From Clostridiales bacterium (GTDB taxonomy: Bacteria > Bacillota > Clostridia > Oscillospirales > CAG-272): 64,000 bases of DNA. The position numbers and the translations under genes were made by a program. Shown here piece after piece: positions 21,487-62,922 of the stretch (its first letter is position 1; the number at the start of each line of letters is the position of its first letter). The stretch spans positions 247,918-311,917 of the forward strand of contig JAAYHB010000021.1 of the NCBI GenBank assembly GCA_012727435.1, read 5' to 3'. The notes beneath the pieces were generated by a model. That model was not told the origin of the DNA. It did no database searches and saw nothing but the letters and a program-made list of their open reading frames with translations.

Positions 21487-21559
21487 AGAAAGTTTTCAAA
21501 AAGTGTCTTGAGCGGGGTGCGGGGCGGAGCCCCGCAAGTAAATCGGGCGCAGAGCCCCC
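21487..21559 (+). repeat. structured intergenic repeat, copy A (left hairpin arm missing, two GC modules)
   Basis: AGAAAGTTTTCAAAAAGTGTCTTGAGCGGGGTGCGGGGCGGAGCCCCGC...GGGCGCAGAGCCCCC aligns to copies B-H. It accounts for the listed 77-aa ORF 21370..21603. Confidence 0.7.
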
Positions 21560-21563
21560 GACA

Positions 21564-22118
21564 TCAGCGGCTCACGGTTGTTATAATTGTTGACGGATTA
21601 TAATATTTGCATAGTTTAAGCGCTTTTTCGGTTGCTTCGAAGAGAAAGGCGCATCTTTCGTTTTTGTCATTTACATAAGTAATGAAGTAGGCGTCTTTTG
21701 CCGAGGAGGAGGACAGGGCAGAAAAGACATGTTCGGCGCCCCAGGCTTCAAGCCGGCTTTTCTGCAGCCGGTCGTCGAGCGGGGCGATGGCAGAGGCGTC
21801 CTTGAGCCTTATTTCGGTGATTTTTTTGCGCGAGCGGTTTCCGTATATTTTTGTGAAAGTCAGAATTCCTGAGATTATAGAGTATTCGTATTCCACACTC
21901 ACATAACGCCAGGTAAAGAAGACCAGCACCCAGACGCTCAGCGGTACGAAGGCAAGCAGCGGGACTACAATCCGGGCAAAGGCCCCGATTAGAAAAGCGG
22001 CTATGACATAAAAAACATAAGCTGCAATAAGGGCGACACGTCTCCAGAAATATTTGCCTTCATACTTTTGGGAGACGGTGAACTCATATGAGGTAAACTC
22101 GTTCATGCTTTTATTCAC
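21564..22118 (-). CDS. hypothetical membrane protein
   Basis: 184-aa ORF with two adjacent TM helices (RRVALIAAYVFYVIAAFLIGAF, VPLLAFVPLSVWVLVFF). No family recognised. Confidence 0.5.
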   Translation of the reverse strand: MNKSMNEFTSYEFTVSQKYEGKYFWRRVALIAAYVFYVIAAFLIGAFARIVVPLLAFVPLSVWVLVFFTWRYVSVEYEYSIISGILTFTKIYGNRSRKKITEIRLKDASAIAPLDDRLQKSRLEAWGAEHVFSALSSSSAKDAYFITYVNDKNERCAFLFEATEKALKLCKYYNPSTIITTVSR

Positions 22119-22240
22119 CTTTATAGAAGGATTTTCCCGGACTGCCGGCGGGGCGTCGTTATTTCTACATTATTATACAATATTCCTGCCTGCAAAACAA
22201 CCCGAGGCGCTCATTTTTTATTTTGCTGTCGCTCCGATAC

Positions 22241-22269
22241 TTGAAAAGAATGAAGATATGCTGTATAAT
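22241..22269 (+). promoter_or_regulatory. sigma-A promoter for the ACT/UPF0210 operon
   Basis: TTGAAA (22241-46), a 17-nt spacer, then TATAAT (22264-69). Confidence 0.55.
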
Positions 22270-22300
22270 ACTGGCACAGTCTATTTCGGAAGGAACCGCC

Positions 22301-22570
22301 ATGAAAGCAGTAATCACAGTAACAGGCAAGGATACCGTGGGAATTATCGCACTTGTCAGCACCGAGTGTGCCGCAAACGACGTGAACATACTCGACATAT
22401 CGCAGACCGTGCTCGGCGAGTATTTTGCCATGATCATGCTTGCCGATGTTGAAAAACTGAAAATCCCCTTTGTGGAATTTGCCGACAGGCTCGCAGAGCT
22501 GGGGCGCGCCAAAAACCTCGACATACACGTTATGCACGAGGACATTTTCAATTCGATGCACCGTATATAA
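22301..22570 (+). CDS. ACT-domain protein (UPF0237 family)
   Basis: Start trimmed to [20 protein letters not shown]. At 89 aa it is typical of the small ACT protein that precedes UPF0210 genes. Confidence 0.75.
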
Positions 22571-22589
22571 GAAAGCCGGGAACTTTTGT

Positions 22590-23948: not shown

Positions 23949-24095
23949 ACCGGGAAAACTTACCAATATCAGGCCATATTATTAACAATTTATACATAAT
24001 TTGGTGATTAGGTGCCCGAAAACCTGCCTAAAATAATTTCAGGCACATACATATATTGGTACATGCGCCTACAACAATAAAACAGAAAGGACGTT

Positions 24096-27000
24096 TTGAA
24101 CATGAAAAAGCTACTTACCCGCAGGACGCTTGGCATTATTGTGGCGACCCTGATTTTTGTGACCGCGGCTGCGGGAGCCGCGCTCGTCCATGCCGGGGCC
24201 GATACCGGCGACGAGGCAGTATGGGGACCAAGCACCAGTTATGGTAATAGCGGAACCTTTGCGCAGGCCATAAGCTATGCGAACGGGCTTACCTCAGGGA
24301 CGGCGTACATTAAGCTGCTTCGTGATGTGAACACCACAACGGCGGTCACCATCAACAGCGGCAAGACAGTCGTGCTCGACCTTGACGGGCACAGGATCGA
24401 CCGGGGGCTTACCTCGGCGACGGCGAACGGCAACGTGTTCAACGTACTTGGCTCTCTTACGGTTAACGACTCTGCCGGCGGCGGCATGATTACCGGCGGC
24501 TACAACTCGGGATACGGCGGCGGCATATACGTCACGGGTACCTTTACGCTCAAAGCCGGTTCTGTCCTGCTCAACAGGAGCTCCTCAAACGGCGGCGGCA
24601 TATACGCGACCTCGGCCGGTGTTGTCAATATCGAAGGCGGCGAGGTCAGGCTAAATGCCAGCATGTCAAAGGGCGGCGGGATATATGCCGAGGGTGCCTG
24701 CGTGATAAAAGGCGGAGAAATAAAAGAGAACACCGCAGCGACAGCCCCCGGAGGGGTATACTTCGGTACAAGCCTGACGGTGTCGGGCTCTCCCAAAATT
24801 ATAGACAACGTTGTGGGGGGCACCATCAGCGGCGCCGTGCTCAGCGGGGGAACAAGCAGTAATATTTATATTACCAGCAGGAGCATTACTATAACCAGCC
24901 CGGGACTGGGCGGTGACGCCAAGATCGGAGTTTCGTCCTCAACAGCTCCGACCGCGACAACCGCATATCCCATCACCAACGTAAACAGCGCCGACTACAG
25001 CGCCTACTTTGTGTCCGACAACATAAGACACATTATAATAAATTCTGGCAGCGGGAGCGCGCAGGTTGTGGCAATTGCGCTTCAGGAGGTAATCTGGGGC
25101 TCAACCTCGTCATATAGCGAAGGCGGGGGCACTGTTGCCGAGGCGATAGCCTATGTGGCAGGCCTTCCCGACAACACCACAACCTACATTTTGCTGCAGA
25201 AAAACGTCACAATAAGCACCGCTATTGAAATTCCGGCAAACAAGACCGTGCGGCTTGACCTCAACGGATATACCCTCTCAAGAGGGCTTTCCTCGCCGAC
25301 CAGCGGCGGGTATGTCATAGGGGTGACCGGAAACCTGATAATTGACAATACCGCCGACACCACCGGCAAAATCACCGGCGGCTACAACGACGGCAACGGC
25401 GGCGGCATCTGCGTTTACGACACCGGAAAGCTGACCATCAACGGAGGCAGCATTACCGGCAATAAGGCGGCAAACGGCGCCGGTATATTCCTGCATAATT
25501 TTGCCGAGCTTACGGTCAATACCGCAAGTATCACCAACAACACCGCCACCTCGAGCGGCGGCGGCATATATACCAGCTCGACCGATATAACCATAAACCA
25601 GTCGGCGACGATTTCAGGCAACAAAGCGGTTGACGGCGGCGGAATATACATTGTCGGCAGCGGCGAAGTCGATTTGAGAGGAAGGGTTACCGGCAACTCG
25701 GCAACCGGCAACGGCGGGGGCGTTTATGCAAGCGGGACACTTATAGTATCAAATGCAGCTTATGTTTACGGAAACACCAAATCCGGCGCCCCGAATAACG
25801 TTTATCTGCCGGCTGGCAGGCTGATTGTCGTCGATATGACAAACGGGCTTTCGGGTACTGCGAGAATCGGCATTACCACAGAGAACGCGCCGGGTGCCGG
25901 GTCCCCGATTGACATAATAGCCCCGGTAAATGCCAACCTGAGCGGCTATTTCTCCTCGGATAACCCGAATTTCGGCCTGAAGAACGAGGGAACCGGGTCA
26001 AATCAGGTGCTCAAGCTCTGCAACCAGTCGGTTTCGGTAGGCGAGCTGACCGGGGGAACCCTTGAGAGAAGAAAGGCGGTCTCGGGGCTGACGATAACCG
26101 TCACTACCACGAATATGTCAAACGGTATGCCGGCAACCATCACATGGTACAACAATGCCAGCAAATCTGCTTCGGGTTCGGCATACAAGCCCGCGGGCGT
26201 CACCATCACTGCCGGGACGGTCAACGACAATAAGGTAATCCTCACGGTATCGGCAACCTCAAGCACAAATGCCGGGGACTACTACTTCACGGTAACCGTG
26301 GGAGGCATCGAATCGGACATCAAAATCCTGACTATCGGACGGACCAAGCTTAACCTCCCGTCGATAACAACCTCCTGTTATTATACCGGTTACGAGCAGT
26401 CGCCTACAATCAATGGCTTTGACAGTAATACCATGACGATTGTCAGCGGCAACAAACAGACCAACGTCGGGCGGAACTACCCGATTGTAATTGCAATTAA
26501 GGACAAGACCCAATACGAGTGGATTAACGGCAGTACCGACAATATAACACTTTACTGGGACATCGAAAAAGCGCTGCTGAAAATGCCGACCGTGGCGGGT
26601 CCCTGCACCTACAAGGGTACAGAGCAGAGCCCGGTTCTCAATAATTTCAACGCCTCGCTGATGGATATCACCGGCAACAAGGCAAAGGAAATCGGGACCT
26701 ATACCCTGACAATTACCATCAAGAATACAGCTAATTATCAGTGGGAAAACTATACTTCAATGCCGATAACGCTGGAGTGGAGCATAGTAAAAGCGCCGCT
26801 GACAGTAAAAGCGAACGACATCACCGTTGTCTACGGCGATCCCGTGCCGACCTACACCGTGACCTACTCCGGGCTTGTCGGCGGCGAGAATCACACCGTT
26901 CTCAAGGGGACCCTCAAGCTGACCTGCTCCTACACGCAGGGCTCGAATGCCGGTAACTATACGATAGTGCCGAGCGGGCTTTCCTCCGACAATTACGATA

Positions 27001-28175
27001 TAACCTTTGTCCCCGGAACCCTCACGGTAGCCAAAAAGCCTGTGAATGTTATCTGGACCGAAACCGAATTCACCTATGATGGCAAGACGCACCAGCCGAA
27101 AGCGGTACTATCCGGCTATTCGGGGAGCGCTGCCATAACCGTAACCGGAGCTGCGGTGAACGCCGGGACATGGACAGCCGAAGCCGTGGGATTCAACGAC
27201 ATCAACCATTATCTGGTGAATCCTACCGTCAGCTTCACCATTAAAAAAGTCCCGCTTAGGATAACCGCAAATAACCACACCATCACATACGGCGAGGAAC
27301 CTGACGACAACGGCGTAATCTACGAAGGTTTTGTAAGTGGAGAGGGCAGCGCCGTGTTGTCGGGTGTGTTGACCTATACCTTTGACTACGAAAAGTACGG
27401 CGACGTCGGAAACTACACCATAACCCCCGGCGGCCTGAGCTCAATTAACTACGACATCACATATGTTCCGGGCAAACTGACCGTCGTGAAAGCCCCGGTT
27501 ACAATAAAAATCAATGACGTATCGGCGGCCGACGGCAATGCCGAGCTCACCTGGGAGGTTGTCGAGGGGGCGTTTGTAAACAATGACGAGAAGTATCTTA
27601 CCCTCACGCGCCAGCCGGGCGATACTCCGGGCAGGTACGAAATCACGGGTACACTTGACAGCGGCAACTACGACTGCACTATCATAAACGGGACCTACAC
27701 CATCCTTCAGACCGAGATTCAGACCTCCGGCAACACCTACGGGATAGACATGACCTCAGAGAAAGGGCTCGACCCCGACTACAGGCTTGTGGTCGAGTTG
27801 CTCGACAAGAAGGAGATCTCAAAGAAGATCGACGCAAAGGTGATTGCGGCATATGACATTTCGCTGGTGAAGGATAATTCGGAGGTCCAGCCCGACGGCC
27901 GGATTACCATACGAATTCCCGACACCTTCGAGAAATATGAGCTTTTATCGCTGGCCCACGTTGGTGATTCGGGCAAGGTCGAGTACCTGTTTACAGTTAG
28001 AAAGGACGGCTACCTGACAGTGACTGTCGACAGCCTGTCAACCTTTGCGGTGGTCGACCTTGAGACAGATTACACCTGGGCGTGGATTGTTGCGGTGATC
28101 GTGATCGTGGTGCTGGGCGGCGGGCTCTGCATCTACCTCTTCGGTTTCAGAAAGAAGCACGAAGATACTGAATAA
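24096..28175 (+). CDS. giant surface protein: duplicated beta-helix (GGGIY/PMP-like) modules, MBG-type repeats, C-terminal TM anchor
   Basis: 1359 aa. N-terminal signal/TM. Two roughly 300-aa paralogous modules (VWGPSTSYGNSGTFAQAISYANGL... / VIWGSTSSYSEGGGTVAEAIAYVAGL...) rich in GGGIY turns. Repeated ITVVYGDPVPTYTVTY...GNYTIVPSGLSSDNYDITFVPGTLTV units. Terminal WAWIVAVIVIVVLGGGLCIYLFGFRKK. Confidence 0.8.
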   Translation: MNMKKLLTRRTLGIIVATLIFVTAAAGAALVHAGADTGDEAVWGPSTSYGNSGTFAQAISYANGLTSGTAYIKLLRDVNTTTAVTINSGKTVVLDLDGHRIDRGLTSATANGNVFNVLGSLTVNDSAGGGMITGGYNSGYGGGIYVTGTFTLKAGSVLLNRSSSNGGGIYATSAGVVNIEGGEVRLNASMSKGGGIYAEGACVIKGGEIKENTAATAPGGVYFGTSLTVSGSPKIIDNVVGGTISGAVLSGGTSSNIYITSRSITITSPGLGGDAKIGVSSSTAPTATTAYPITNVNSADYSAYFVSDNIRHIIINSGSGSAQVVAIALQEVIWGSTSSYSEGGGTVAEAIAYVAGLPDNTTTYILLQKNVTISTAIEIPANKTVRLDLNGYTLSRGLSSPTSGGYVIGVTGNLIIDNTADTTGKITGGYNDGNGGGICVYDTGKLTINGGSITGNKAANGAGIFLHNFAELTVNTASITNNTATSSGGGIYTSSTDITINQSATISGNKAVDGGGIYIVGSGEVDLRGRVTGNSATGNGGGVYASGTLIVSNAAYVYGNTKSGAPNNVYLPAGRLIVVDMTNGLSGTARIGITTENAPGAGSPIDIIAPVNANLSGYFSSDNPNFGLKNEGTGSNQVLKLCNQSVSVGELTGGTLERRKAVSGLTITVTTTNMSNGMPATITWYNNASKSASGSAYKPAGVTITAGTVNDNKVILTVSATSSTNAGDYYFTVTVGGIESDIKILTIGRTKLNLPSITTSCYYTGYEQSPTINGFDSNTMTIVSGNKQTNVGRNYPIVIAIKDKTQYEWINGSTDNITLYWDIEKALLKMPTVAGPCTYKGTEQSPVLNNFNASLMDITGNKAKEIGTYTLTITIKNTANYQWENYTSMPITLEWSIVKAPLTVKANDITVVYGDPVPTYTVTYSGLVGGENHTVLKGTLKLTCSYTQGSNAGNYTIVPSGLSSDNYDITFVPGTLTVAKKPVNVIWTETEFTYDGKTHQPKAVLSGYSGSAAITVTGAAVNAGTWTAEAVGFNDINHYLVNPTVSFTIKKVPLRITANNHTITYGEEPDDNGVIYEGFVSGEGSAVLSGVLTYTFDYEKYGDVGNYTITPGGLSSINYDITYVPGKLTVVKAPVTIKINDVSAADGNAELTWEVVEGAFVNNDEKYLTLTRQPGDTPGRYEITGTLDSGNYDCTIINGTYTILQTEIQTSGNTYGIDMTSEKGLDPDYRLVVELLDKKEISKKIDAKVIAAYDISLVKDNSEVQPDGRITIRIPDTFEKYELLSLAHVGDSGKVEYLFTVRKDGYLTVTVDSLSTFAVVDLETDYTWAWIVAVIVIVVLGGGLCIYLFGFRKKHEDTE

Positions 28176-28220: not shown

Positions 28221-28234
28221 GCATCCCCGGCTTC

Positions 28235-28306
28235 GGAGCTCTGCCCCGCACCCCGCTTAAGACCCTTTTGAAAAAAGGTCTTGAGAATCACCAAAACTTT
28301 TAAAAC
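28235..28306 (-). repeat. structured intergenic repeat, copy B
   Basis: The reverse complement reads GTTTTAAAAGTTTTGGTGATTCTCAAGACCTTTTTTCAAAAGGGTCTTAAGCGGGGTGCGGGGCAGAGCTCC. Confidence 0.8.
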
Positions 28307-28436
28307 TAAAAGACAGCGCGGGTCTCAAATCCCGCGCTTTGTTGCAATAAGTCGGCCGGTTGACCAAAAAGGCCGTGCGGGCGACCGCAGGTCACCCGTT
28401 ACAGGACATATCCAAGCAGTGTGAACTGCCGGCAAC

Positions 28437-31915: not shown

Positions 31916-31997
31916 CGGGGGCTCCGCCCCCGCTTTTCTTCCGGGGGCTCCCGAACCCCCGCTTAAGACCCTTTTTGAAAAACAAAATCGCTAATAC
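31916..31997 (-). repeat. structured intergenic repeat, copy C (half hairpin, two GC modules)
   Basis: The reverse complement reads ...TTTTTCAAAAAGGGTCTTAAGCGGGGGTTCGGGAGCCCCCGGAAGAAAAGCGGGGGCGGAGCCCCCG. Confidence 0.65.
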
Positions 31998-32080
31998 AAA
32001 AGCGCGGGCCCCTATTAGTTATAAGATACTAGACATTAGACATTAGTAGAGACTGAAGATTCGGGGGCGTATGCCTTAAC

Positions 32081-32864: not shown

Positions 32865-32949
32865 GGGCTTACCCTCCGTATGGGTAACAGTTGAAATACT
32901 CTTTGTTGCACTCAATAAATCATGTTACTTAATATGTCCTATTTTGTTT

Positions 32950-33022
32950 GAAAGTTTTTGAAGATTCCAAAGGAACTTTTTTCAAAAAGTTCCTTTGGCG
33001 GGGGGAGGGGGGCAGCGCCCCC
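32950..33022 (+). repeat. structured intergenic repeat, copy D (inside the pflB-pflA spacer)
   Basis: GAAAGTTTTTGAAGATT-CCAAAGGAACTTTTT-tc-AAAAAGTTCCTTTGG-CGGGGGGAGGGGGGCAGCGCCCCC, with a perfect 15-bp stem. Confidence 0.8.
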
Positions 33023-33032
33023 AATTAGGCAG

Positions 33033-35261: not shown

Positions 35262-35345
35262 CTTTTTCTCCTCCTTATATAAAATAGGGAACATAATCCG
35301 AATAATTGCGACAGTATTTCAATGATATTTTGCCGCCGCAGGGGT

Positions 35346-35395
35346 AAAAAATACGCCCGGGCAGATTATCGGAGTGATAAAATCTGCCCAGGCGT
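35346..35395 (-). terminator. leader terminator (expression platform of the ZTP riboswitch)
   Basis: On the minus strand: ACGCCTGGGCAGAT-17 nt-ATCTGCCCGGGCGT (14 bp with one G-U pair) followed by ATTTTTTA. The left arm reuses the aptamer CGCCUGGGCA element. Confidence 0.75.
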
Positions 35396-35457
35396 CCGGC
35401 ACTTTCCTTATCCGTTCCACCACAGTTATTTCTGTGCTACGCCAGTCGCGGATAAGG
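35385..35457 (-). promoter_or_regulatory. ZTP riboswitch (pfl RNA motif) aptamer
   Basis: The minus strand reads CCUUAUCCG-CGACUGGCG-UAG-CACAGaaauaaCUGUG-GUGGAA-CGGAUAAGG-aaagug-CCGGACGCCUGGGCA. This gives P1, the conserved GACUGGCG, the P2 hairpin and the 3' CCGnCGCCUGGGCA element of the pfl motif, located in the pflB 5' leader. Confidence 0.8.
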
Positions 35458-35482
35458 GTATTTTTTCACTTTTTTCACCATA

Positions 35483-43738: not shown

Positions 43739-43752
43739 TGCTTGTTTGTTCC

Positions 43753-45377: not shown

Positions 45378-45571
45378 GGCTTTTCTCCTCGTATACTAAA
45401 TATTTCGGGCCGGACCCCAATCTGATTATACAGTTTTTTCCGTGTGACGTCAATAAACTTTGTGACATCACTTTTTTCAAACCGTACTGCCGCTCGAAAA
45501 AGCCGGACGGCTTCAGCTGCCCGACTAAGTGAACTTACGGTGCGGGGTACGCACTGTAATAATCGCAATTT

Positions 45572-45647
45572 GGTTTAAAAGTTTCTTGGGAATTCTCAAG
45601 ACCTTTTTTCAAAAAAGTCTTAAGCGGGGAATCGGGGGCAGAGCCCC
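45572..45647 (+). repeat. structured intergenic repeat, copy F
   Basis: GGTTTAAAAGTTTCTTGGGAATTCTCAAGACCTTTTTTCAAAAAAGTCTTAAGCGGGGAATCGGGGGCAGAGCCCC. Confidence 0.8.
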
Positions 45648-45650
45648 TCA

Positions 45651-46199
45651 TTAGTTATCCGGCTTTAGCCCTGCGCGGCGGAGGGCGACGACCAGCGGGG
45701 GAATGAGAAGTATCTGAATGACAATGCCGGGGATTGCCACCACGATAGTGCCGCTCCAGAAGGCTGAGAAGCTGAACTCTGTGTTGCCCAGCCCGGCGAT
45801 AATGAACAGAGCCGCTCCCGAGACCAGCCGCCCGGCAATCATTGAAAGTATAAGATTTATGTATATATACGGGATTTTTTTCGGCAGAAATTTGATAAGC
45901 AGGCCGGTCAGTGCACCGTACGCAGCAAGCTCGAAGATCATTGCAACCCCGACAGGGAAGAGCGGAGGCATTCCGAACAAGGCCGAGCTGATAATCGGGG
46001 AGACAAGGCCGACTGCCAGCCCCCACGGCCAGCCGCAGACAAAGCCGCAGAGGAGAACCGGCAGGTGCATCGGCAGGAGTACTCTGCCCAAATCCCCGAA
46101 CTGGTGGAAAACCTGGGGCAGGAGCAGGGCGATGGCAAGGAACATTGCCGAATAGGTGAGTTTTTTCAGGCGAAGGCGAAGAAATTCAGACGCTTTCAT
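45651..46199 (-). CDS. ECF-transporter S (substrate-capture) component, substrate unknown
   Basis: 182 aa with about 6 TM helices. The overall pattern is that of ECF S components (LPMHLPVLLCGFVCGWPWG...). AAAGGAG RBS. Confidence 0.55.
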   Translation of the reverse strand: MKASEFLRLRLKKLTYSAMFLAIALLLPQVFHQFGDLGRVLLPMHLPVLLCGFVCGWPWGLAVGLVSPIISSALFGMPPLFPVGVAMIFELAAYGALTGLLIKFLPKKIPYIYINLILSMIAGRLVSGAALFIIAGLGNTEFSFSAFWSGTIVVAIPGIVIQILLIPPLVVALRRAGLKPDN

Positions 46200-52325: not shown

Positions 52326-53717
52326 CTATTTGCCCACGCAGAAGTTAGCGAAAATTTCCTCCACGACATCCGAGGTAACCTCGCGCCGGTCGATTTCGGC
52401 GAGCGCCCCCATTGCAAGCTCAAGGTCGGAACAGCAGATATCCTCCGGCAGCCCGGCGAGCAGCGCCGAGAGCGACTGCCCGATATACTCTCCTGCCCGG
52501 CTGAGGGCAGCATATTGCCGGGCGCTGGCAATAACCGCATCCTGTGATATGTCGATGCTGCCGTCGATAAACAGGTTTCTCACAACCCCGGCAAGCTCGT
52601 CTATTCCCTCGCCGGTGAGCGCCGAGACCCGCACGGTCGCCGTGCATTTGATTTCGGTAAGAGCACCCGGAGCCTCCGGCAGGTCGATTTTATTGAGCAC
52701 CGTGACAACCGGCGCGGTGAGCGAGGAAAGATACTCTGCAAAGCGAAAGTCCTCTTCATCTGCCGGGCGCGAAACATCAAAGACCGCAAGCACCAGCTCG
52801 GCGCGCTCCGTCTCCCTGCGGGCGCGCTCAATTCCTATAAGCTCAACCCTGTCATGACTCTCTCTCAGCCCTGCGGTGTCAAGCAGGTGCAGAGTTACCC
52901 CGCCGAAGGAAACTATATTCTCAAGCACGTCCCTGGTCGTCCCGGCAATGTCTGTGACAATGGCGGCCTCATAACCTAAAATCCTGTTGTAAAGCGAGCT
53001 CTTTCCGCTGTTGGTCCGCCCGCAGATAACCGTCCGCACGCCCTCCGATATTGCCTTTCCGGTCCGGTAGGTCGCCGCAAGCCTGCGGAGGCGGTCATTT
53101 ATGGCACTTACCCGGTCGCAGAGCTCCTGCCGGCTGATGCCCGACAGATCTTCATCTGGAAAGTCAATTCTGGCAAATAAACCTGCAACCAGCCGGCGCA
53201 GCTCCTCATACATCTGCCGCACTTCTGAGGAGAGCGCTCCGTCCATGCCCGAGCGTGCGAGGAGAATCTGCCCGTGGGTTTTTGCGTCAAGCAAAAGGCC
53301 GAGCGCCTCGGCTTCAGACAGCCCGAGCCTTCCTGCGACAAAGGCGCGGCGGGTGAACTCTCCCGGCCCGGCCGCTCTGGCTCCCGCGCAGAGTACCGCC
53401 TCAAGCACAGTTTGGGTGATCAGCACCCCGCCGTGGCAGGAAATCTCAACCGTGTCCTCCCCCGTAAATGAAGCGGGGGCACGGAAAATCACCGCTATAC
53501 CGTCGTCGACGCGGCGCTGCGAGCCGTCAGGCTCTTTTATATAGATGTCGCCGTACACCGCCTGCCTTGACGCGATGTCACGAAGTGACCTGCCGCTCTT
53601 CGGCCTGAAGACCTTCGCGGCAATTTCAACCGCGTTGTGGCCGGATACGCGGATAAGCGCAATTCCGCCCTTGCCCCGCGGCGTCGATACCGCCGCAATA
53701 GTGTCGGTTATGTTCAT
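52326..53717 (-). CDS. mnmE: tRNA modification GTPase MnmE/TrmE
   Basis: MNITDTIAAVSTPRGKGGIALIRVSG N-terminus, G domain GRTNSGKSSL/DTAGLR/NKID, and the C-terminal CVGK motif. Confidence 0.95.
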   Translation of the reverse strand: MNITDTIAAVSTPRGKGGIALIRVSGHNAVEIAAKVFRPKSGRSLRDIASRQAVYGDIYIKEPDGSQRRVDDGIAVIFRAPASFTGEDTVEISCHGGVLITQTVLEAVLCAGARAAGPGEFTRRAFVAGRLGLSEAEALGLLLDAKTHGQILLARSGMDGALSSEVRQMYEELRRLVAGLFARIDFPDEDLSGISRQELCDRVSAINDRLRRLAATYRTGKAISEGVRTVICGRTNSGKSSLYNRILGYEAAIVTDIAGTTRDVLENIVSFGGVTLHLLDTAGLRESHDRVELIGIERARRETERAELVLAVFDVSRPADEEDFRFAEYLSSLTAPVVTVLNKIDLPEAPGALTEIKCTATVRVSALTGEGIDELAGVVRNLFIDGSIDISQDAVIASARQYAALSRAGEYIGQSLSALLAGLPEDICCSDLELAMGALAEIDRREVTSDVVEEIFANFCVGK

Positions 53718-53931
53718 GGCTTTTACCGGGAGCTTTCAAGTTCCCGGACCCCCTTGAGTTTTTTACAAAAATGATTAAAACCCGCAGTTCTGCGCAGGAT
53801 AATAACGGAGGAGTTTCTTATCTTGTTCGCAAAATCCCGGAACTGCGGCAATACATATTTTATCATTCCGCAGGTATACTGTCAATATCCGCGCGCCAGA
53901 GGGCCCGGCGGCCCTAAATTTCGCAAATCCC

Positions 53932-53960
53932 TTGACAAATGGTACTTTTTATGCGATAAT
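53932..53960 (+). promoter_or_regulatory. sigma-A promoter for rpmH-rnpA
   Basis: TTGACA (53932-37), a 17-nt spacer, then GATAAT (53955-60) with TGc (extended -10). Confidence 0.6.
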
Positions 53961-54030
53961 GTATGCTGTCATTGTGTAAAGGCGTTAAATCAACCGGAAA
54001 TTATCGCTTCCATCAATCCGAAAGGGGTGC

Positions 54031-54171
54031 ATCAAATTACTCAGGACCTACCAGCCCAAAAAGCGCCAGAGAAAAAAGGAGCATGGCTTCAGAAAAAGAA
54101 TGAGAACGGCTGACGGCAGAAAAGTCCTCAAGAGAAGACGCGCAAAAGGCAGAGAAAGACTAACCTATTGA
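54031..54171 (+). CDS. rpmH: 50S ribosomal protein L34 (apparent ATC start)
   Basis: Not in the ORF track. The frame reads (I)[45 protein letters not shown]. This is an unmistakable L34 core, but there is no in-frame ATG/GTG/TTG after the upstream TAA at 53986-88. An AAAGGGG SD lies at 54021-27. Confidence 0.8.
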
Positions 54172-54329
54172 TTGATAAGTAAAGCCACCGATTGCCGGGG
54201 AACGCTGCAGTGTTTTTTGGCATCGGGGTTTTTAGAATATGGGGTTTTGGCCGTCAAACCGGTATCAATACAGAGAGGCTGCCCGGACAGCCCGCCCCGC
54301 ATCACCGGCCCGCGGAGGGATGTTCTGGA

Positions 54330-54710
54330 ATGAAACACATATCGCTCAAGGAAAATCATCTTTTCAGCAAGGCATATGCCGGCGGGCAGAAATACTACGG
54401 CAGATATACCTCGGTTTATGTTTTGCAGGACCGCGCGGCATACCGGCTGATGAAGGCAAATCCCCAGAAGGAATATATAAACCGGCTCGGTATCACCGTT
54501 TCAAAAAAACTCGGAAGCGCGGTTGTCCGCAGCCGCCTGCGCAGGATTCTCAGGGAAGGATTTCGCGCTGTTGAAAAAGAGGGCAATCTCAAAACCGGTT
54601 ATATTATAGTAATAAGCGCAAAGGCCGCCGCTATCGGCAAAAAAAGCACCGATATCTATCATGAGCTGAAGATTGCCTTCGGCAAGCTCGGACTTATCAG
54701 TGCCGGATAA
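54330..54710 (+). CDS. rnpA: ribonuclease P protein component
   Basis: Start trimmed to MKHISLKENHLFSKAY, with GGAGGGA 10 nt upstream. RNR-type motif VRSRLRRILRE. Follows rpmH. Confidence 0.9.
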   Translation: MKHISLKENHLFSKAYAGGQKYYGRYTSVYVLQDRAAYRLMKANPQKEYINRLGITVSKKLGSAVVRSRLRRILREGFRAVEKEGNLKTGYIIVISAKAAAIGKKSTDIYHELKIAFGKLGLISAG

Positions 54711-54713
54711 AAC

Positions 54714-54947
54714 ATGAAACACTTTTTTATATGGTTGATACGTCTTTGCCAAAAATATCTGTCTCCCCTCAAACGCTATCCGACCTGCCGGTTCACGCCG
54801 ACATGTTCAAGCTACGCCATAGAGGCGTTTTCAGAATGGGGCTTCTTTGCGGGGCTGGGGCTGACAATCTGGAGAATAATAAGGTGTAATCCCTTCTGCG
54901 CCGGCGGGTATGACCCGGTCCCGGTGCGCCGCAAAAAAAAGGAATGA
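54714..54947 (+). CDS. yidD: membrane protein insertion efficiency factor YidD
   Basis: [24 protein letters not shown] motif. Confidence 0.9.
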
Positions 54948-55056
54948 ATGACTGAGGCAGACGATATTTGCAATGACAGGGCTCCAAATAAAGACAGAGG
55001 ACCCGGGCTTCGGCCCCGGTAGAATCCGGGACATATGCCGGACGGGAGAAAAAACA

Positions 55057-56805
55057 ATGCCACAAGTAAAAAAATCACATTTTGTCTTCGCGTTGCTGGC
55101 CGCCTTTCTTTTATGCAGTTTTCTTGTGACGCCGGCAGCGGCCGGTGAGACGGCCGAAACAAGCGATGCGGCAGGGGTTACGCTCAGCCCAGGAGAGCTT
55201 AAGAACTTAGGCGACATCATCGCGGCAGCAAAGGCCGATGCCAAGGCGGAGGATACCAGAACGCCGCGCGACATGCTGACTGCCGCTTTCCTTGCAGGTG
55301 ACCTGCCGGAGGCAGTAGATGTTATAAAAAAGGTAAATACGGCACAGAGCACGCCGGTTGATATTGATTATGACGCGCTGACACTCGCGGATATCGAGGC
55401 GCTTGTCGAGATTATGAAAACCGAGGTCAGCATGGAAAAGCCGGGCGGCTTTTTTGCGGTTATCCAGCTTGCCGCCGGGAGCTTGCTCAACTGGCTTACC
55501 CAGGTGCTGGGCGGCGGCAACTATATCATCGGGCTGGCGGTCTTTGCACTGCTGATTGAGGCTTTAATGCTGCCGCTGACAGTAAAGCAGCAGAAAAACT
55601 CAATCAAGTTCGCCTCGCTCAAACCCAAGGAAGCGGCTATCCGTAAAAAATATGCCGGGCGCGAGGATAAGGTCACCAAAAACAAGATGGCAGTCGAAAT
55701 ACAGGAGATGTACCAGAAAGAAGGCTACAACCCTTTTTCCGGCTGCCTGCCTATGTTTATCCAATTGCCGATTATTTTTATACTTTACTATGTCGTTGTC
55801 AACCCCATAGTATATGTAATGAAGCTCTCGGCCGGGATTTCCGAAGCGCTGACCATCTTTGTCAATACTTCGGCCGAGGCCGGAGGGCTCGGTGCCGGGC
55901 TGACCACGTCGCGCGGAACCATTCAGATAGCCTCGCTGATAAAGGACAACCCCGAATTTATCGAAAAGCTCAGCAAATTTCAGTATTTTTCAAACAGCGC
56001 CGAGGTCGCCGAAGCGGTTGCCGGCGCGCAATTTCCGAATTTTAATTTCTTCGGCCTCAATTTCGGGCTGGTGCCCGACATAACAAACCCCGACTGGCTG
56101 CTTATCATCCCGGTCCTGACTTTTCTTGTCTCTTTTTTGAGTATGAAGCTGACCAGAAAGCTGACCCCGCAGCCCGCCGAAAACGACCAGGCCACCGGCT
56201 GTTCAAATAATATCATGGACATCGGGATGCCGGCCTTCAGCGCATATATCTGCTTTATTGTTCCCGCCGCGCTGGGATTTTACTGGATGGTAAAGAACCT
56301 GCTCGGCACGGCAAGCCGGTTGGTGCTGGCCAAGGTCATGCCCCTGCCGGTATTCACCGAGGAGGACTATAAGGCCGCCGAGCGCGAGATACTCAAGGGG
56401 AAGACTGCAAGGCCAAGCAGACCAGGTCCCACAGGGAAGCCGGTCAGGTCGCTGCACCACATCGACGATGAGGATTTTGAGGACACCCGCGCCAAAGCGC
56501 TCGAGCGCAAAGCACGGCTTGAAGCATATGAGAGGGAGCTGGCCGAACAGCAGGCGGCCAAGAAAAGGCCTGCGGGGATGAAAAACGAGGACGACCGCCC
56601 CATGCGCTCGCTTTTTGACATTCTGAAAGGAAAAAAGAAGACCAGCGAGTCGGCAGGAGAGGCAGAGAAACCCGAAACCCCGGCACAGGAAGAAACCGCA
56701 AAGCCCGATACAGAAGGACAGGAGAGCTGCGAAAGCAACCCGCCTGCCGACAATACACCGAAAAATCCCGATAAGCCCGAAAAGAAAAAGCAGAAGGGGA
56801 AATAA
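55057..56805 (+). CDS. yidC: membrane insertase YidC/Oxa1 family, unusually long
   Basis: Start trimmed to MPQVKKSHFVFALLAAFLLCSF (signal). The YidC core is at about aa 170-400 (LPLTVKQQKNSIKFASLKPK..., GCLPMFIQLPIIF). About 170 aa of Lys/Glu-rich C-terminal tail. Confidence 0.85.
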   Translation: MPQVKKSHFVFALLAAFLLCSFLVTPAAAGETAETSDAAGVTLSPGELKNLGDIIAAAKADAKAEDTRTPRDMLTAAFLAGDLPEAVDVIKKVNTAQSTPVDIDYDALTLADIEALVEIMKTEVSMEKPGGFFAVIQLAAGSLLNWLTQVLGGGNYIIGLAVFALLIEALMLPLTVKQQKNSIKFASLKPKEAAIRKKYAGREDKVTKNKMAVEIQEMYQKEGYNPFSGCLPMFIQLPIIFILYYVVVNPIVYVMKLSAGISEALTIFVNTSAEAGGLGAGLTTSRGTIQIASLIKDNPEFIEKLSKFQYFSNSAEVAEAVAGAQFPNFNFFGLNFGLVPDITNPDWLLIIPVLTFLVSFLSMKLTRKLTPQPAENDQATGCSNNIMDIGMPAFSAYICFIVPAALGFYWMVKNLLGTASRLVLAKVMPLPVFTEEDYKAAEREILKGKTARPSRPGPTGKPVRSLHHIDDEDFEDTRAKALERKARLEAYERELAEQQAAKKRPAGMKNEDDRPMRSLFDILKGKKKTSESAGEAEKPETPAQEETAKPDTEGQESCESNPPADNTPKNPDKPEKKKQKGK

Positions 56806-56868
56806 TGCCGTCGGGATACCGATACAACATTTTAGTTTGCCGCCTCTGGCGGCCTGGAGGATATTTCT

Positions 56869-57561
56869 GTGAAAAGGGAAGTTATCACAACCGGAAAAAC
56901 TGTTGAGGAAGCCGTAGAGGCCGCTGTCAAGGAGCTCGGAGCCCCTTCGGCCGATAAAATAAGTTATACGATTCTTGAGGAGCCCCGGCGCGGGTTGTTC
57001 GGAATAGGTGCCACCCCGGCCAAAATCAATGCGACCTATTCGGCCGGCGGTGCCGAGATTGCCCTTGAATTCGTCGAGAAAGTCATTGCCGACATGAGGA
57101 TTGACGCCAAATCCCGACTTGAGGACAAGGGAGAAGGCAACTGGTGGATAAATATCGAGGGCAGCGGAGCAGGGGTGCTGATAGGCCACCACGGAGAGAC
57201 GCTTGACGCCCTTCAGTACCTTGCAAACCTTACCGCAAACAGGAAAGGTGACCGCGAGAAGCACGAGCATGTAAGGATTATACTTGACGTCGAAGGTTAC
57301 CGCGCCAAGCGCGAGGAAGCGCTCCGCGCGCTTGCCCGCCGCATGGCCGAGAGGGTCCAGAAGTACAAGAAAAGCGTGATGCTCGAGCCTATGAACCCCT
57401 ATGAGCGGAGGATTATCCACTCCGAGGTACAGCTTATTGAGGGAGTATCGACAAACTCGATTGGCTCTGAAAACAACCGCAAGGTAGTTTTGTATCTTGA
57501 CGAGAAGGGAATTAAGAAGACTGCGGCAAAAAAACAGGACAACCCGGGCGACGATAAATAG
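56869..57561 (+). CDS. jag: Jag/KhpB RNA-binding protein (KH + R3H)
   Basis: GTG start with a GGAGGA RBS. Jag_N VKREVITTGKTVEEAVEAAVKELG, and R3H LEPMNPYERRIIH. Confidence 0.9.
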   Translation: MKREVITTGKTVEEAVEAAVKELGAPSADKISYTILEEPRRGLFGIGATPAKINATYSAGGAEIALEFVEKVIADMRIDAKSRLEDKGEGNWWINIEGSGAGVLIGHHGETLDALQYLANLTANRKGDREKHEHVRIILDVEGYRAKREEALRALARRMAERVQKYKKSVMLEPMNPYERRIIHSEVQLIEGVSTNSIGSENNRKVVLYLDEKGIKKTAAKKQDNPGDDK

Positions 57562-58626: not shown

Positions 58627-58700
58627 CTCGCGGTGGTAATAAAACTTTTCAATGGCACGGAAAACGGGTATTCGCGCCACTTTATTTGCGATATAGGTAT

Positions 58701-58773
58701 AGAAGTTTTGGGGATTCTTAAGACTTTTTTACAAAGGGTCTTCAGCGGGGGTCCTGGGGCCGCGGCTCCCGCG
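58701..58773 (+). repeat. structured intergenic repeat, copy G
   Basis: AGAAGTTTTGGGGATTCTTAAGACTTTTTTACAAAGGGTCTTCAGCGGGGGTCCTGGGGCCGCGGCTCCCGCG. Confidence 0.75.
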
Positions 58774-58783
58774 ATTTATTTTC

Positions 58784-58812
58784 TTGACACATCAGGAAAT
58801 CACGGGTATAAT
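58784..58812 (+). promoter_or_regulatory. consensus sigma-A promoter for the ymdB-like gene
   Basis: TTGACA (58784-89), a 17-nt spacer, then TATAAT (58807-12). Confidence 0.6.
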
Positions 58813-58844
58813 AGTGTTAAAACAACTTAAAGATTGGATAAAAC

Positions 58845-60041: not shown

Positions 60042-60059
60042 TAAACTGGAGGGCCACTT

Positions 60060-61694
60060 ATGAGCATGTTTTGCTATCAGTGTCAGGAAACCGCCGGCGG
60101 CAAGGGCTGCACGGTGCGCGGCGTATGCGGGAAAACCGAGGAGGTCGCAAAGCTTCAGGATCTTTTGATTTACACCGTCAAGGGTATATCAGATATTGTC
60201 GTCAAAGGCGGGCTTGACGCCGGCAGCCTCGGGGAGCTCAACCGCGAGGTGCTGACCAGCCTGTTTATGACGATTACAAACGCCAATTTCGACCCCGATG
60301 CCATAGAGCGCCAGATAAGGAAAATGCTTGAGGCAAGGGATAAGCTGAGATGGTCGGCAGGAGACCTTTCGGGTCTTCATGACGCCGCCACATATACGGC
60401 GGGCACGCGCGACGAGATGCTTGAAACTGCATCCTCGGTTGGGGTGTTCGCCACCGAGAACGAGGATATCCGCTCGCTGTGCCAGATGATTACATATGGC
60501 ATCAAGGGCATGGCGGCATATGCCGAGCACGCCGCAAATATCGGCAGGGAGGACGCCGATATCTACGCCTTTATTTATGAAGCGCTGGCAAAGACGCTCG
60601 ATGACACATGCGCTGTTGACGACCTCGTAACCCTGACACTCAGGACCGGCGAGTACGGGGTCAGGACAATGGCCCTGCTTGATGCGGCCAACACCTCAAG
60701 GTTCGGCGACCCCGAGATTACCGAGGTCAACATCGGCGTTCGCAAAAATCCCGCCATTCTTATCTCGGGACATGATCTGACCGACCTTGAGCAGCTGCTG
60801 GAGCAGACTCAGGGAACCGGCGTAGACGTCTATACGCACGGCGAGATGCTGCCCGCGCATTACTACCCGGCGTTTAAAAAATATGAGAATTTTGTCGGGA
60901 ACTACGGCAATGCGTGGTGGCGGCAGCTTGAGGAGTTTGTGTCCTTCCGCGGCCCGATAATATTTACCACAAACTGCATTGTGCCGCCAAGGAGCGAGGA
61001 GGTCAGGGGCAGAATCTTCACCACCGGCTCCGCGGGGTATCCGGGCTGCAAACACATAGCCGCCGACAAGAACGGCAAAAAGGACTTTTCGGAGGTCATC
61101 GCGCTGGCAAAGACCCTGCCCGCCCCCGAGGCTATCGAGAGCGGCAGCATCACCGGCGGGTTTGCCCACCGGCAGGTTGTGGCGCTGGCCGATAAGGTGG
61201 TTAAGGCCGTTAAATCAGGCGCAATCAAGAAGTTCATTGTCATGGCGGGCTGCGACGGGCGGATGAAGTCGAGGGAGTATTATACCGAATTTGCAAAAAA
61301 ACTGCCGCAGAACACAGTGATTCTCACAGCGGGTTGCGCAAAATACCGCTACAACAAGCTCCCGCTGGGGGATATCGGAGGAATTCCGCGGGTGCTCGAT
61401 GCCGGCCAGTGCAACGATTCGTATTCGCTTGTGGTTATCGCGCAGAAATTAAAGGAGGCTTTCGGTCTGGACGACATAAACAAGCTGCCGATAGCCTACA
61501 ACATCGCTTGGTATGAGCAGAAGGCGGTTATTGTTCTGCTTGCGCTGCTCTACCTGGGAGTGAAGAACATCCATTTAGGGCCGACGCATCCGGGCTTTCT
61601 GTCACCCGCGGTCAGCAGGTTGCTGGTTGAGAAATTCGGCCTTGCTAAAATCGGCACGGCAGACGCCGATATCGAGCTTTTCATGGCCGACTGA
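60060..61694 (+). CDS. hcp: hydroxylamine reductase / hybrid-cluster protein
   Basis: N-terminal Cys cluster [23 protein letters not shown], 544 aa. Confidence 0.95.
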
Positions 61695-61703
61695 TACATA
61701 AAG

Positions 61704-61738
61704 CAGAATCCCGCCGTTGACATAACGGCGGGATTCTG
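61704..61738. terminator. bidirectional terminator between hcp and the AraC gene
   Basis: 15-bp stem CAGAATCCCGCCGTT-gacat-AACGGCGGGATTCTG followed by TTTCAAT. Confidence 0.75.
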
Positions 61739-61858
61739 TTTCAATACCCCCATGCACCGGGCATACCCTTTTCCAAAGTCAACCGTAAGATGATGGTAGC
61801 AGTGCGCAGGATATGATACCCGTGCTGCTTTATTAGTGTTGCGGAGCCCCACAAATCT

Positions 61859-62743
61859 TTACTCTCTGTTTTCGATTATATCCTGTCCGGTCGCGCGGTA
61901 TTTGGCCGGGGTGACTCCGGTGGCCTTGGTGAACACGCGGATGAAATACGAGGTGCTGTTAAACCCGCAGGCAAAGGCGGTCTCGGTCACGCCCCTGCCT
62001 TCTTTGAGCATCATTTTGCTCCTGCTTATCCGCACGCTGCGGATATAGTCATGCACTGTAAAGCCGGTATACCGTCGGAAGACCCGGGTCAGGTAGTCCT
62101 TGTTGATGTAAAAATGGCTGGCAATCTCATCAAGACCTGAGAGCGTCCGGTAATTCTTGCGGACATATCTGATAACATCATATATTATATTAGGCATATC
62201 TGGCGGGCCGAACAGCTCGGAATTGTTGTCCGGGTGTCCGGCCTCGTTGTTGATAAATATCAAAAGTTCGGCAAGCCGACCGAGCACGGTAAGCGGCGGC
62301 AGCTCTGAGCCGGGGTCGGTGCATTGCTTGATATCCTCAAGCAGCTCCTTCAGTTTATCCCTGCTCTCCGGCGGGATTCTGAGCAGGTTTATCTCCGCAA
62401 ACCGCTCGTCCATAAATATGCCGAGCGTCGACTTGTTTCCCCCTTCAATCCACGAAAAAGCGTCCTGGGGAATCCAGACTGCGTATCTCTCATATACCGA
62501 GTCTTCGGCAGCCAGCGCATAGTGCGGCTCCCCGGCGCGGCAGAAAAAGATGTCCCCGAAGCCGAGCTTATATGTCTTCCGGCCGGCAAAGTGCAGCATG
62601 CGTCCCGACAGGATAATGCAGATCTCCATGAAGGCATGCTCGTGCATGTGGTCGTAATAGGTCTCGGGCGACACCTTTTCCTTTGCATACCTGATTTTTA
62701 TAGGATAGTTGCCGGTGAGATTTAGCACCACATGCTGCCTCAT
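61859..62743 (-). CDS. AraC-family transcriptional regulator (cupin + HTH)
   Basis: The ORF track extends to 62947, but the first 68 codons are translated from repeat copy H. The ATG at 62743 (MRQHVVLNLTGNY) has GCAGGAGGGG 7 nt upstream. C-terminal HTH GFNSTSYFIRVFTKATGVTPAKYR. Confidence 0.8.
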   Translation of the reverse strand: MRQHVVLNLTGNYPIKIRYAKEKVSPETYYDHMHEHAFMEICIILSGRMLHFAGRKTYKLGFGDIFFCRAGEPHYALAAEDSVYERYAVWIPQDAFSWIEGGNKSTLGIFMDERFAEINLLRIPPESRDKLKELLEDIKQCTDPGSELPPLTVLGRLAELLIFINNEAGHPDNNSELFGPPDMPNIIYDVIRYVRKNYRTLSGLDEIASHFYINKDYLTRVFRRYTGFTVHDYIRSVRISRSKMMLKEGRGVTETAFACGFNSTSYFIRVFTKATGVTPAKYRATGQDIIENRE

Positions 62744-62852
62744 ATCCCGCCCCTCCTGCGCAATGTTCTCTGATTTATCATACCACTCCCGCGCTGCCCT
62801 GTCAATTGTCCGGCTGACTTTTCGGGATCCACCACCCGACCCCAAAGAAGGC

Positions 62853-62922
62853 GGCGGGGCTCTGCCCCGCACCCTGCTCAAGCCCCTTTTGGAAAAGGGT
62901 TTTAAAAATCTCCAAAACTTTC
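62853..62922 (-). repeat. structured intergenic repeat, copy H
   Basis: The reverse complement reads GAGAAAGTTTTGGAGATTTTTAAAACCCTTTTCCAAAAGGGGCTTGAGCAGGGTGCGGGGCAGAGCCCCGCC. Confidence 0.75.

Follow-up and report, generated by a model that had tools for sequence, protein, structure and literature searches.

The 64,000-nt stretch analysed here (the window; positions 247,918 to 311,917 of contig JAAYHB010000021.1 in the Clostridiales bacterium assembly GCA_012727435.1) carries eight copies, A to H, of a short structured repeat that lies between genes. We conclude that these copies very probably belong to a large family, resembling the repetitive extragenic palindromes (REPs) and bacterial interspersed mosaic elements (BIMEs) of Escherichia coli, which resides on the chromosomes of many Clostridia. 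The copies are old, vertically inherited residents and not recent insertions. Their placement is non-random: the GC-rich end of the unit typically lies 0–15 nt from a stop codon, that of a gene reading into the element. A first-pass annotation of the window had described a structured intergenic family that no gene explains, and had called it REP-like or like a miniature inverted-repeat transposable element (MITE). The family and its REP likeness are supported by the present analysis. The MITE label is not, because single units have no terminal inverted repeats (TIRs), their flanks show no excess of direct repeats, and neither insertion polymorphism nor an empty site was seen. REP-like repeats are unsurprising as such; the noteworthy part is the breadth, selective retention and transcription-linked placement of this family in a little-studied clade, which hint at a partner.

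All eight copies were recovered where they had first been placed. Six are full length and two (A and C) are truncated; five are in forward and three in reverse orientation. All are intergenic, between convergent (A, B, C and E), tandem (D, F and G) or divergent (H) genes. A repeat search of the window linked the copies as direct and inverted repeats, and MAFFT aligned all eight, the six full copies having a mean column identity of 71%. A covariance model built from these six was run over the window with filters off. It scored the full copies at 73–95 bits and the truncated copies A and C at 27 and 17 bits, and it found no ninth copy in the 64 kb. The next-best match (8789–8853, 16 bits) is an ordinary terminator, and another at 743–823 is an unrelated AT-rich palindrome. 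Since this test is circular, an independent nhmmer profile was made from 150 copies taken only from other genomes. The profile recovered exactly the eight window copies, with E values from 1.2e-19 to 9.5e-07, and nothing more in the window at E < 0.01 save reverse-strand echoes of the palindrome. A degenerate core pattern matched six copies, as compared with 0.00 expected from 100 dinucleotide shuffles, and every perfect GGGGCNGNGCCCC hairpin of the window falls within the eight copies. The similarity also survived formal alignment and significance testing, the trial that the first-pass annotation had set for it.

The unit is a double hairpin of ∼80 nt in round figures, with a range of ∼75–110 nt. 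Its consensus, derived from column statistics over 150 copies of other genomes, is TTTTTT-(G/T)AAAGTTTTTGRRGATTC-[stem]-TTTTT-nC-AAAAA-[stem']-(A/G)GCGGGG-2 to 6 nt-[ext]GGGGC-RGM-GCCCC[ext']. From 5' to 3' it consists of a T-rich edge with a conserved purine-rich arm (AAAGTTTTTGRRGATTC); a near-perfect hairpin of 14–16 bp (hairpin 1), in which the apex T5-nC-A5 is fixed and the outer stem varies with compensating changes; a conserved GCGGGG; and one or more GC mini-hairpins, GGGGC-RGM-GCCCC, with an outer stem extension that co-varies (TGC...GCA, CCA...TGG, TTT...AAA). This agrees with the layout first proposed from the window copies, namely a left arm, an AT-centred hairpin and one or two GC palindromes. 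Most copies have a single GC hairpin and some have two or more, gained or lost as modules of ∼24 nt. The left arm was absent from the search pattern, so that its conservation is independent evidence. The lengths of the T- and A-runs vary; therefore no reading frame is kept and the unit is non-coding.

In an alignment fitted to the model, which somewhat favours structure, 98.2% of 2509 pair cells of hairpin 1 were canonical, as compared with 52–75% when partners were slid by 1–3 columns, and double-sided changes were present in 15 of the 17 pairs (381 cells). A model-free count gave an uninterrupted perfect stem of at least 11 bp, mostly 14–16 bp, in 72% of copies, and there were 88 distinct perfect arm sequences among 141 copies. 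Within the window, compensation is complete in the stems of copies D (CCAAAGGAAC/GTTCCTTTGG) and E (CTTCAACCCC/GGGGTTGAAG) when these are set against the stems of B and F (CTCAAGACC...). Near-perfect stems could in part reflect template-switch correction of quasi-palindromes rather than selection. The unit core does not have the form of an intrinsic terminator: on neither strand does a T-run follow one of the hairpins. T-rich sequence is present after some distal GC modules only. In copies C and E a U-rich linker comes after the distal GC hairpin in the reading direction of the gene, and in copy G there is a T-rich run. These modules can therefore also resemble terminators. Rfam 15 at gathering thresholds returned only a ZTP riboswitch in the window and no family for the repeats, and a search of five copies at E up to 10 returned only chance miRNA-like matches. 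The CodY box, integron attC, dif/Xer, parS and the Streptococcus thermophilus CRISPR1 repeat were set aside, as their motifs do not appear to fit.

An exact-pattern scan covering one genome per GTDB species was used to survey other genomes, and all survey counts are among the matches listed. The scan returned at least 107 stretches from at least 43 assemblies. Nearly all carriers were metagenome-assembled genomes (MAGs) labelled Eubacteriales, Clostridia, Oscillospiraceae or Christensenellales and recovered from digesters or from the guts of animals and humans; Acutalibacter caecimuris (Acutalibacteraceae) was the one carrier listed that has been cultured. The covariance model gave at least 180 matches in 100 of the listed loci, many of them unseeded by the pattern, and nhmmer gave at least 198 non-overlapping matches overall. 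The search for further copies beyond the window, on which the first-pass annotation had staked the family, thus yielded ∼190 in at least 43 genomes. Their density in the listed loci, 1.12 extra copies per 10 kb, is close to the 1.25 per 10 kb of the window; extrapolated to an assumed genome of 2.5–3 Mb, this would amount to a few hundred copies per genome. Many matches lay at contig ends, indicating that the repeat breaks assemblies.

No copy was found in 80 unrelated metagenome loci for the activase of pyruvate formate-lyase (PFL) (∼240 kb, PFL-AE relatives at ≤ 52% identity), and the IMG/VR viral contigs, INPHARED phages and PLSDB plasmids contained no match to the repeat. Searches of the accessible literature by keyword and on the hairpin sequences returned no description of the family, which would seem to be undescribed. 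The window itself is 99.8% identical to JGI metagenome contigs and to the NCBI MAG GCA_029551775.1; its organism is therefore uncultured. One full copy (71 bits) was present outside the Clostridia, at positions 177–259 of a locus on contig NODE_70 (17.8 kb) of Pseudodesulfovibrio karagichevae 9FUS. In this deltaproteobacterial isolate assembly, either the contig is a clostridial contaminant or the copy was transferred horizontally; the MatE gene next to it, 24–27% identical to clostridial ones, does not decide between the two.

Placement was assessed against a manually annotated gene map in the window and, in the other loci, against a simple coding-potential open reading frame (ORF) caller, which reproduces the manual map of the window and is imperfect elsewhere. 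Twenty-two calls that put a copy within a gene were antisense-ORF or start-codon artefacts. Contexts were classified for 123 copies. With arrows for the flanking genes and E for the forward element, there were 50 copies in <E<, 33 in >E<, 22 in <E> and 18 in >E>. The GC end was faced by the 3' end of a gene in 83 of the 123 (p = 1.3e-4), and in tandem contexts the element was antisense to the genes by 50:18 (p = 1.3e-4). A stop codon lay within 15 nt of the GC end in 29 of 80 cases, as compared with 2 of 49 for the left arm (Fisher p = 1.3e-5). There was no replication-strand bias: forward copies were divided 69:74 between the two strands, taking the sign of the locus GC skew as a proxy for the leading strand. 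The antisense bias was kept for both leading-strand (25:11) and lagging-strand genes (7:2). Orientation therefore tracks transcription and not replication, which argues against lagging-strand targeting of the kind known for IS200 and REP-associated tyrosine transposases (RAYTs) as its cause. Convergent intergenic regions held 27% of the copies and make up 16% of intergenic regions, a modest enrichment.

Five of the window copies illustrate this geometry. Copy D (32944–33029, +; full length; covariance model 81.7 bits, profile 66.0 bits) separates pflB from pflA within their operon and is antisense to both; the PFL stop codon (33033) is 8 nt from its GC end. Copy F (45571–45655, +; full length, 94.7 bits) is likewise antisense to both flanking minus-strand genes, and its GC end abuts the stop codon of an energy-coupling factor S-component gene (45651) at 0 nt. 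In copy E (43628–43742, +; full length, 91.2 bits), which has two GC hairpins (43692–43704 and 43726–43738), the GC end is ∼11 nt from the stop of the minus-strand gene 43753–45090. Copy C (31916–31999, −; 17.2 bits, profile 24.7 bits) has neither a left arm nor, in hairpin 1, a 5' stem, both having been lost, and retains two GC hairpins; the distal one (31916–31932, followed by CTTTTCTT) begins 8 nt past the stop of an ABC ATPase gene (31908). Copy A (21481–21559, +; 27.4 bits; profile 35.4 bits over profile positions 36–78) is missing the 5' stem and the 3' portion of the arm, the distal left arm being fused directly to the 3' half of hairpin 1. It retains GCGGGG and two GC mini-hairpins (21521–21533 and 21546–21558), and is downstream of the rplA terminator (21371–21408), with its GC end 5 nt from the stop of the minus-strand gene 21564–22118. 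An ORF at 21370–21603 runs through this copy and is spurious, as had been suspected.

The remaining three copies are placed differently. Copy B (28227–28308, −; full length; 87.6 bits, profile 64.0 bits) lies between convergent genes for a 1359-aa probable surface protein (stop 28175) and a cardiolipin synthase (stop 28437), and is flanked by the terminators of both. Copy G (58694–58776, +; full length with a diverged GC hairpin, 73.4 bits) is downstream of holA (stop 58626) and co-oriented with its neighbours; a perfect TTGACA-17-TATAAT promoter (58784–58812, +, 12/12) for ymdB begins 8 nt past its GC end. The hairpin, together with the T-rich run between it and the ymdB promoter, resembles the holA terminator. 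Copy H (62848–62929, −; full length, 76.0 bits) occupies the divergent region between an AraC-family gene and a gene for an FAD-oxidoreductase (start 63046). The AraC ORF 61859–62947 extends across it by 68 codons, correctly recognized at first pass as a false N-terminal extension; the true start is the ATG at 62743, which has a GGAGG ribosome-binding site and a TTGACA-17-TATGAT promoter (62805–62777).

All eight copies in the window are singletons, with no doublets or arrays. In other genomes the organization of BIMEs and of REP doublets forming hairpins (REPINs), that is, inverted doublets and regularly spaced clusters, was encountered. Head-to-head doublets, in which the left arms face each other over an AT-rich spacer of 17–35 nt and the GC ends point outward, are frequent there (L085, L030 and L014), and in L085 they were repeated in tandem with alternating orientation. 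A. caecimuris M00118 contains tandem arrays of four units of 125 bp (L044, 6340–6798) and three of ∼124 bp (L038, 3909–4239), along with a pair of units (L016, 6448–6624); a further array has four units of ∼133 bp (L040). These are not CRISPR arrays, since the 50-nt stretches between the cores are themselves repeated; they are simple tandem duplications. Two observations accompany the arrays and doublets. A second, diverged subfamily (AAAAGTTTTGTCCACTTTTTCAAAAGTGG...GGGGTGAAACCCC) occurs near the A. caecimuris arrays. In one MAG group the element forms the right half of a palindromic composite of ∼220 bp (L030, 5760–5990; L014, 340–550), with similar composites in L093, L099, L036, L077, L031, L046 and L042; the left half is a diverged variant with the hairpin GAGGAACTTCTTTCAAGAAGTTCCTC, and the outer ends are an inverted pair, CAAATTGGGGKTT...AAACCCAAATTTG.

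Searches for signs of insertion were negative. Single units have no TIRs, the T-rich arm end and the GC hairpin end being unrelated. Target-site duplications (TSDs) and insertion polymorphism, both proposed as checks at first pass, were looked for and neither was found. The mean longest substring shared by the two flanks was 4.49, against 4.37 in shuffled left/right pairings, a comparison that leaves room for duplications of 2–3 bp, and no conserved target motif was seen 3' of the GC hairpin. Nine same-species contigs, 99.8% identical, showed no presence/absence polymorphism, copies C, D, E and F being unchanged. No empty site was found on pairing flanks across all loci, and every informative cross-species pair shares the site, in a small sample of four independent orthologous sites.

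Copies C and D are both common to the window and one other locus (L091), with flanks 91–93% identical. At the site of copy D, the flanks are 93% identical and the core is nearly identical, the adjacent non-coding DNA is unalignable, and the L091 ortholog has one additional GC module. Copy C has undergone different internal deletions in the two species, the L091 copy having lost hairpin 1 instead. In a second pair (L068 and L021), coding flanks are 78% identical while 58 nt of the core are 100% identical; in a third (L007 and L058), the stems of a same-site copy differ at several positions in both arms, mostly compensated. At 71% identity, the paralogues in the window differ more from one another than orthologous copies of different species do. 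Recent transposition bursts would leave the opposite pattern.

No enzyme that might move the element was found in the window or the sampled loci. The absence of a transposase from the window, as originally noted, was borne out by a Pfam domain search of its genes. A phmmer search with E. coli RayT detected no homologue among six-frame ORFs of the window and 189 loci; this was a weak search, with a single, insensitive query over ∼1.1 Mb of sampled sequence. All-against-all clustering of 1859 ORFs revealed no protein family that recurs beside the element. Neighbouring genes of the copies are housekeeping genes; by Pfam, those between two copies include spoIIR, def, parA, argR, purH and a U32 peptidase, and the neighbours that recur encode transporters and synthetases. 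A variable stem with conserved bases at its foot and apex, the lack of TIRs and TSDs, and the REPIN-like doublets suggest that the family may originally have been spread by an enzyme recognizing single-stranded hairpins, either encoded elsewhere or since lost.

We favour an explanation in which the repeat is an old REP/BIME-like module, passed down vertically, that acts at the 3' ends of mRNAs or between cistrons; taken as a whole, we give this statement an even chance. A transcript-level function, considered by itself, is a possibility that we put somewhat below that. Most copies would appear in transcripts as the reverse complement, either where a 3' untranslated region (UTR) begins or between cistrons such as pflB and pflA. 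Past the stop codon, such an mRNA would first present one or more very stable GC hairpins; the AT-centred hairpin would come next, and the complement of the left arm would form a single-stranded, A/U-rich tail. The two kinds of hairpin could act as barriers to 3' exonucleases, as partial terminators or as insulators, and the upstream message might be stabilized or uncoupled, as with the E. coli REPs in malEFG and near stop codons. In E. coli, REPs block 3'-to-5' exonucleases, setting differential stability within operons, and those within ∼15 nt of a stop codon interfere with translation termination. The position of copy D between the abundant PFL and its activase would fit a logic of differential stability.

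Several points weigh against this explanation. The argument for a role at the RNA level is a purely geometrical one, and the orientation counts are noisy, as the ORF scorer errs in other loci. Mismatches in the stem are more often G.T than A.C on the forward strand (55 versus 20), including where it is the reverse complement that is co-transcribed with genes (21 versus 8). This excess would make the forward strand the folded one, a poor fit to a 3'-UTR model; it is weakened by an alignment model that rewards G-U and by array copies that are not independent. The unit core, lacking a U-tract, is itself no canonical terminator. Copy B is outside both neighbouring terminators and copies G and H are upstream of promoters, so that at least three of the eight copies cannot serve as 3'-UTR modules. 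The decay of copy C by different deletions in two species indicates that not every copy is under selection. In addition, the mobilizing enzyme was not found in the window and sampled loci (∼1.1 Mb).

A bolder proposal, which we hold only tentatively and think unlikely as it stands, is that the element, far from being a selfish repeat in decay, is half of a conserved two-partner system with a dedicated trans-acting protein, specific to a large and mostly uncultured clostridial clade. The protein would recognize the invariant arm, apex and GCGGGG around a stem that is free to vary. It might be a domesticated HUH/RAYT-like enzyme, or a factor binding RNA or single-stranded DNA. Purifying selection would then explain cores that are identical across species in which the genes are 78% identical.

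The strongest of the rivals is an active selfish, non-autonomous transposon, REPIN- or MITE-like, served by a single-copy transposase in trans and without host function, its placement reflecting no more than tolerance of insertion. The repeat is high-copy, dispersed and assembly-breaking, its head-to-head dimers are REPIN-like and its clusters BIME-like. HUH/Y1 enzymes of the IS200/IS605 and RAYT kinds recognize conserved single-stranded sequence that flanks a variable hairpin at its foot (PMC6006769), and the missing TSD would suit transposition through a single strand. Activity is difficult to reconcile with strains that are 99.8% identical and show no polymorphism, with orthologous sites retained down to 78% flank identity and no empty site found, and with paralogues (71% identity) more diverged than orthologues. 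Lagging-strand-targeting Y1 elements are expected to show a replication-strand bias, which is absent here, as are the GT[AG]G foot, any Y1/RAYT homologue or recurrent neighbour gene in the ∼1.1 Mb, and any match in the phage and plasmid collections. We regard this explanation as improbable.

Less probable again is a structural site at the DNA level, a cruciform or a site for a nucleoid or topology protein that organizes supercoiling domains between transcription units. In E. coli, gyrase cuts BIME-2 and integration host factor (IHF) binds other BIMEs. Perfect palindromes with a T5/A5 centre should extrude readily, and their sequence-conserved flanks offer a possible protein site; a density equal to that of E. 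coli REPs, the modest convergent enrichment (27% versus 16% of intergenic regions) and the lack of replication-strand bias are all compatible with such a role. It leaves unexplained both the gene-linked orientation and the apposition of the GC end alone to stop codons, a duplex-binding protein would have no need of compensatory stem changes, and we know of no candidate protein.

We are similarly doubtful, and if anything more so, that the copies are small or antisense RNAs expressed from the forward strand and running into the 3' ends of neighbouring genes. The covariation is strong, G.U-type mismatches exceed A.C on the forward strand in every genomic context, and that strand aims at the 3' end of a gene in two-thirds of copies, often within 15 nt. 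Against a multicopy RNA gene, no −35/−10 signal stands at a fixed distance upstream of the arm, conservation ends ∼8 nt 5' of AAAG, no U-tract terminator follows the GC hairpin, and up to E = 10 there was no Rfam match beyond chance ones; such genes do not typically form tandem arrays and dimers, and truncated copies persist. Finally, that there is no family, only a chance similarity of ordinary GC-rich terminators and low-complexity AT runs, is close to inconceivable: T/A runs and GC hairpins are indeed of low complexity and some GC hairpins with T-rich sequence after them were flagged as terminator-like, but the core pattern was found six times against none expected, the independent profile recovered all eight copies with E values down to 1e-19, the 80 unrelated control loci (∼240 kb) gave no match, and the ordinary terminator at 8789–8853 reached only 16 bits.

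Other features of the window were recorded. A ZMP/ZTP riboswitch (pfl motif) at 35379–35459 (−) scores 56 bits against a gathering score of 39 and lies directly upstream of the PFL gene (33033–35294, −); the pflB-pflA operon is therefore headed by a riboswitch, and repeat copy D separates pflB from pflA. A similarity of ∼35 nt (TAACTTYTAATTCYYGTTCATTTCT..GTTYGC) occurs twice, at 776–811 and 43445–43480, in opposite orientations and both times between genes. The first belongs to a palindrome, GTTCATTTCTTTGT...ACAAAGAAATGAAC, and the second is ∼150 nt upstream of copy E; the pair could be another small repeat or a shared operator. A 19-nt palindrome, ACTCTACT-GTG-AGTAGAGT, is also present twice, at 4373–4391 (the serS stop boundary) and at 11576–11594 (between mnmG (gidA) and ahcY). 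Origin-proximal markers form two blocks: 5696–11567, with parB, parA, a noc-like parB, rsmG and mnmG on the minus strand (5.7–11.6 kb), and 52326–57561, with mnmE (−) and rnpA-yidC-jag (+) (52–57.6 kb). The window does not contain dnaA. Over the first ∼6 kb the GC skew stays close to zero, and from there on it is mainly positive, so that the window appears to lie on one replichore. The 1359-aa protein beside copy B (24096–28175, +) has MBG_2 domains and internal repeats of ∼75–80 nt coding for GGGIY-type motifs, and is probably a surface protein. A 21-nt tandem repeat (18249–18332) lies inside ORF 18138–18797 (−), which has no Pfam match.

Among known systems, MITEs are defined by TIRs, TSDs and presence/absence polymorphism, none of which was seen for this family in the units, flanks and orthologous sites compared. 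The bcr1 element of Bacillus cereus and the BOX, RUP and SPRITE elements of Streptococcus pneumoniae are likewise short, structured, intergenic, multicopy and modular, and some are transcribed with neighbouring genes. RUP and bcr1 carry TIRs and TSDs and behave as MITEs. Set against these elements as generally described, the present family has no known sequence relationship to any of the four, is without the TIRs and TSDs of RUP and bcr1, and differs from BOX in how its modules are built; it also spans many genera or families with a conserved core. Closer in design are the palindrome-associated transposable elements (PATEs) derived from IS200/IS605, whose hairpins have conserved flanking bases and which have no TIRs or TSDs, features compatible with single-strand HUH chemistry. 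The two subterminal hairpins of a PATE are alike, and insertion takes place on the 3' side of a conserved tetra- or pentanucleotide, whereas here the two hairpins are unrelated, no conserved target was seen, and there is no replication-strand bias and no TnpA nearby.

The REPIN-RAYT systems of Pseudomonas and Enterobacteria share with this family the inverted, head-to-head doublets that can fold into a single long hairpin (L085, L030 and L014), the long-term vertical persistence and the absence of TIRs and TSDs. They differ in that all window copies are singletons and in that the defining cognate, a single-copy RAYT flanked by repeats, was not found in the ∼1.1 Mb sampled. REP-associated (class 2) Y1 transposases are described from Cyanobacteria, Bacteroidetes and several proteobacterial classes, Clostridia being named only for the IS200-type subclass 1.1 (PMC6006769), and a survey of REPs leaves Firmicutes unmentioned (PMC3733652). 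If the two-partner proposal holds with an HUH/RAYT-like partner, this would be the first REPIN-RAYT-type system in Firmicutes. The conservation of the core across species in itself suggests a partner protein.

The closest likeness is to the REPs and BIMEs of E. coli. As with canonical REPs, the unit is a short extragenic palindrome of high copy number (8 in 64 kb, and ∼1.1 extra per 10 kb in at least 43 other assemblies). Neither GTAG, GTGG nor CGTC is present at a hairpin foot on either strand in the 150 copies; by column frequencies, hairpin 1 is preceded on its 5' side by GATTC and the GC hairpin by GCGGGG(T). The unit also differs from a REP in being bipartite, with an AT-centred hairpin, separate GC mini-hairpins and a conserved single-stranded arm of ∼17 nt. 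Its stems vary widely inside a single genome, in contrast to REPs, which are near-identical there, and its core is conserved across genera or families. Its host is clostridial, and no RAYT was found in the ∼1.1 Mb sampled.

In its genomic habit the family closely parallels E. coli REPs. Both are extragenic, at ∼1 per 8–10 kb in E. coli and ∼1 per 8–9 kb here, and both are imperfect to perfect palindromes in either orientation, occurring as singletons, clusters of alternating orientation and tandem arrays. Both persist vertically and often lie just past stop codons and inside operons. E. coli REPs in such positions stabilize upstream mRNA or affect translation termination. Given the tight apposition to stop codons and the transcription-linked orientation seen here, it is a testable proposition that in Clostridia a repeat controls operon polarity (pflB versus pflA) or the 3' ends of mRNAs. 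The family accounts for fragmented MAG assemblies, in which many contigs end in a copy, and for annotation artefacts such as spurious ORFs and false N-terminal extensions (the AraC case), and it provides a ready marker for strain typing. The biology of REPs, BIMEs and REPINs is known almost wholly from Proteobacteria, and a dense, structurally constrained counterpart in the Clostridia of guts and digesters would extend it to a major, little-studied part of the microbiome.

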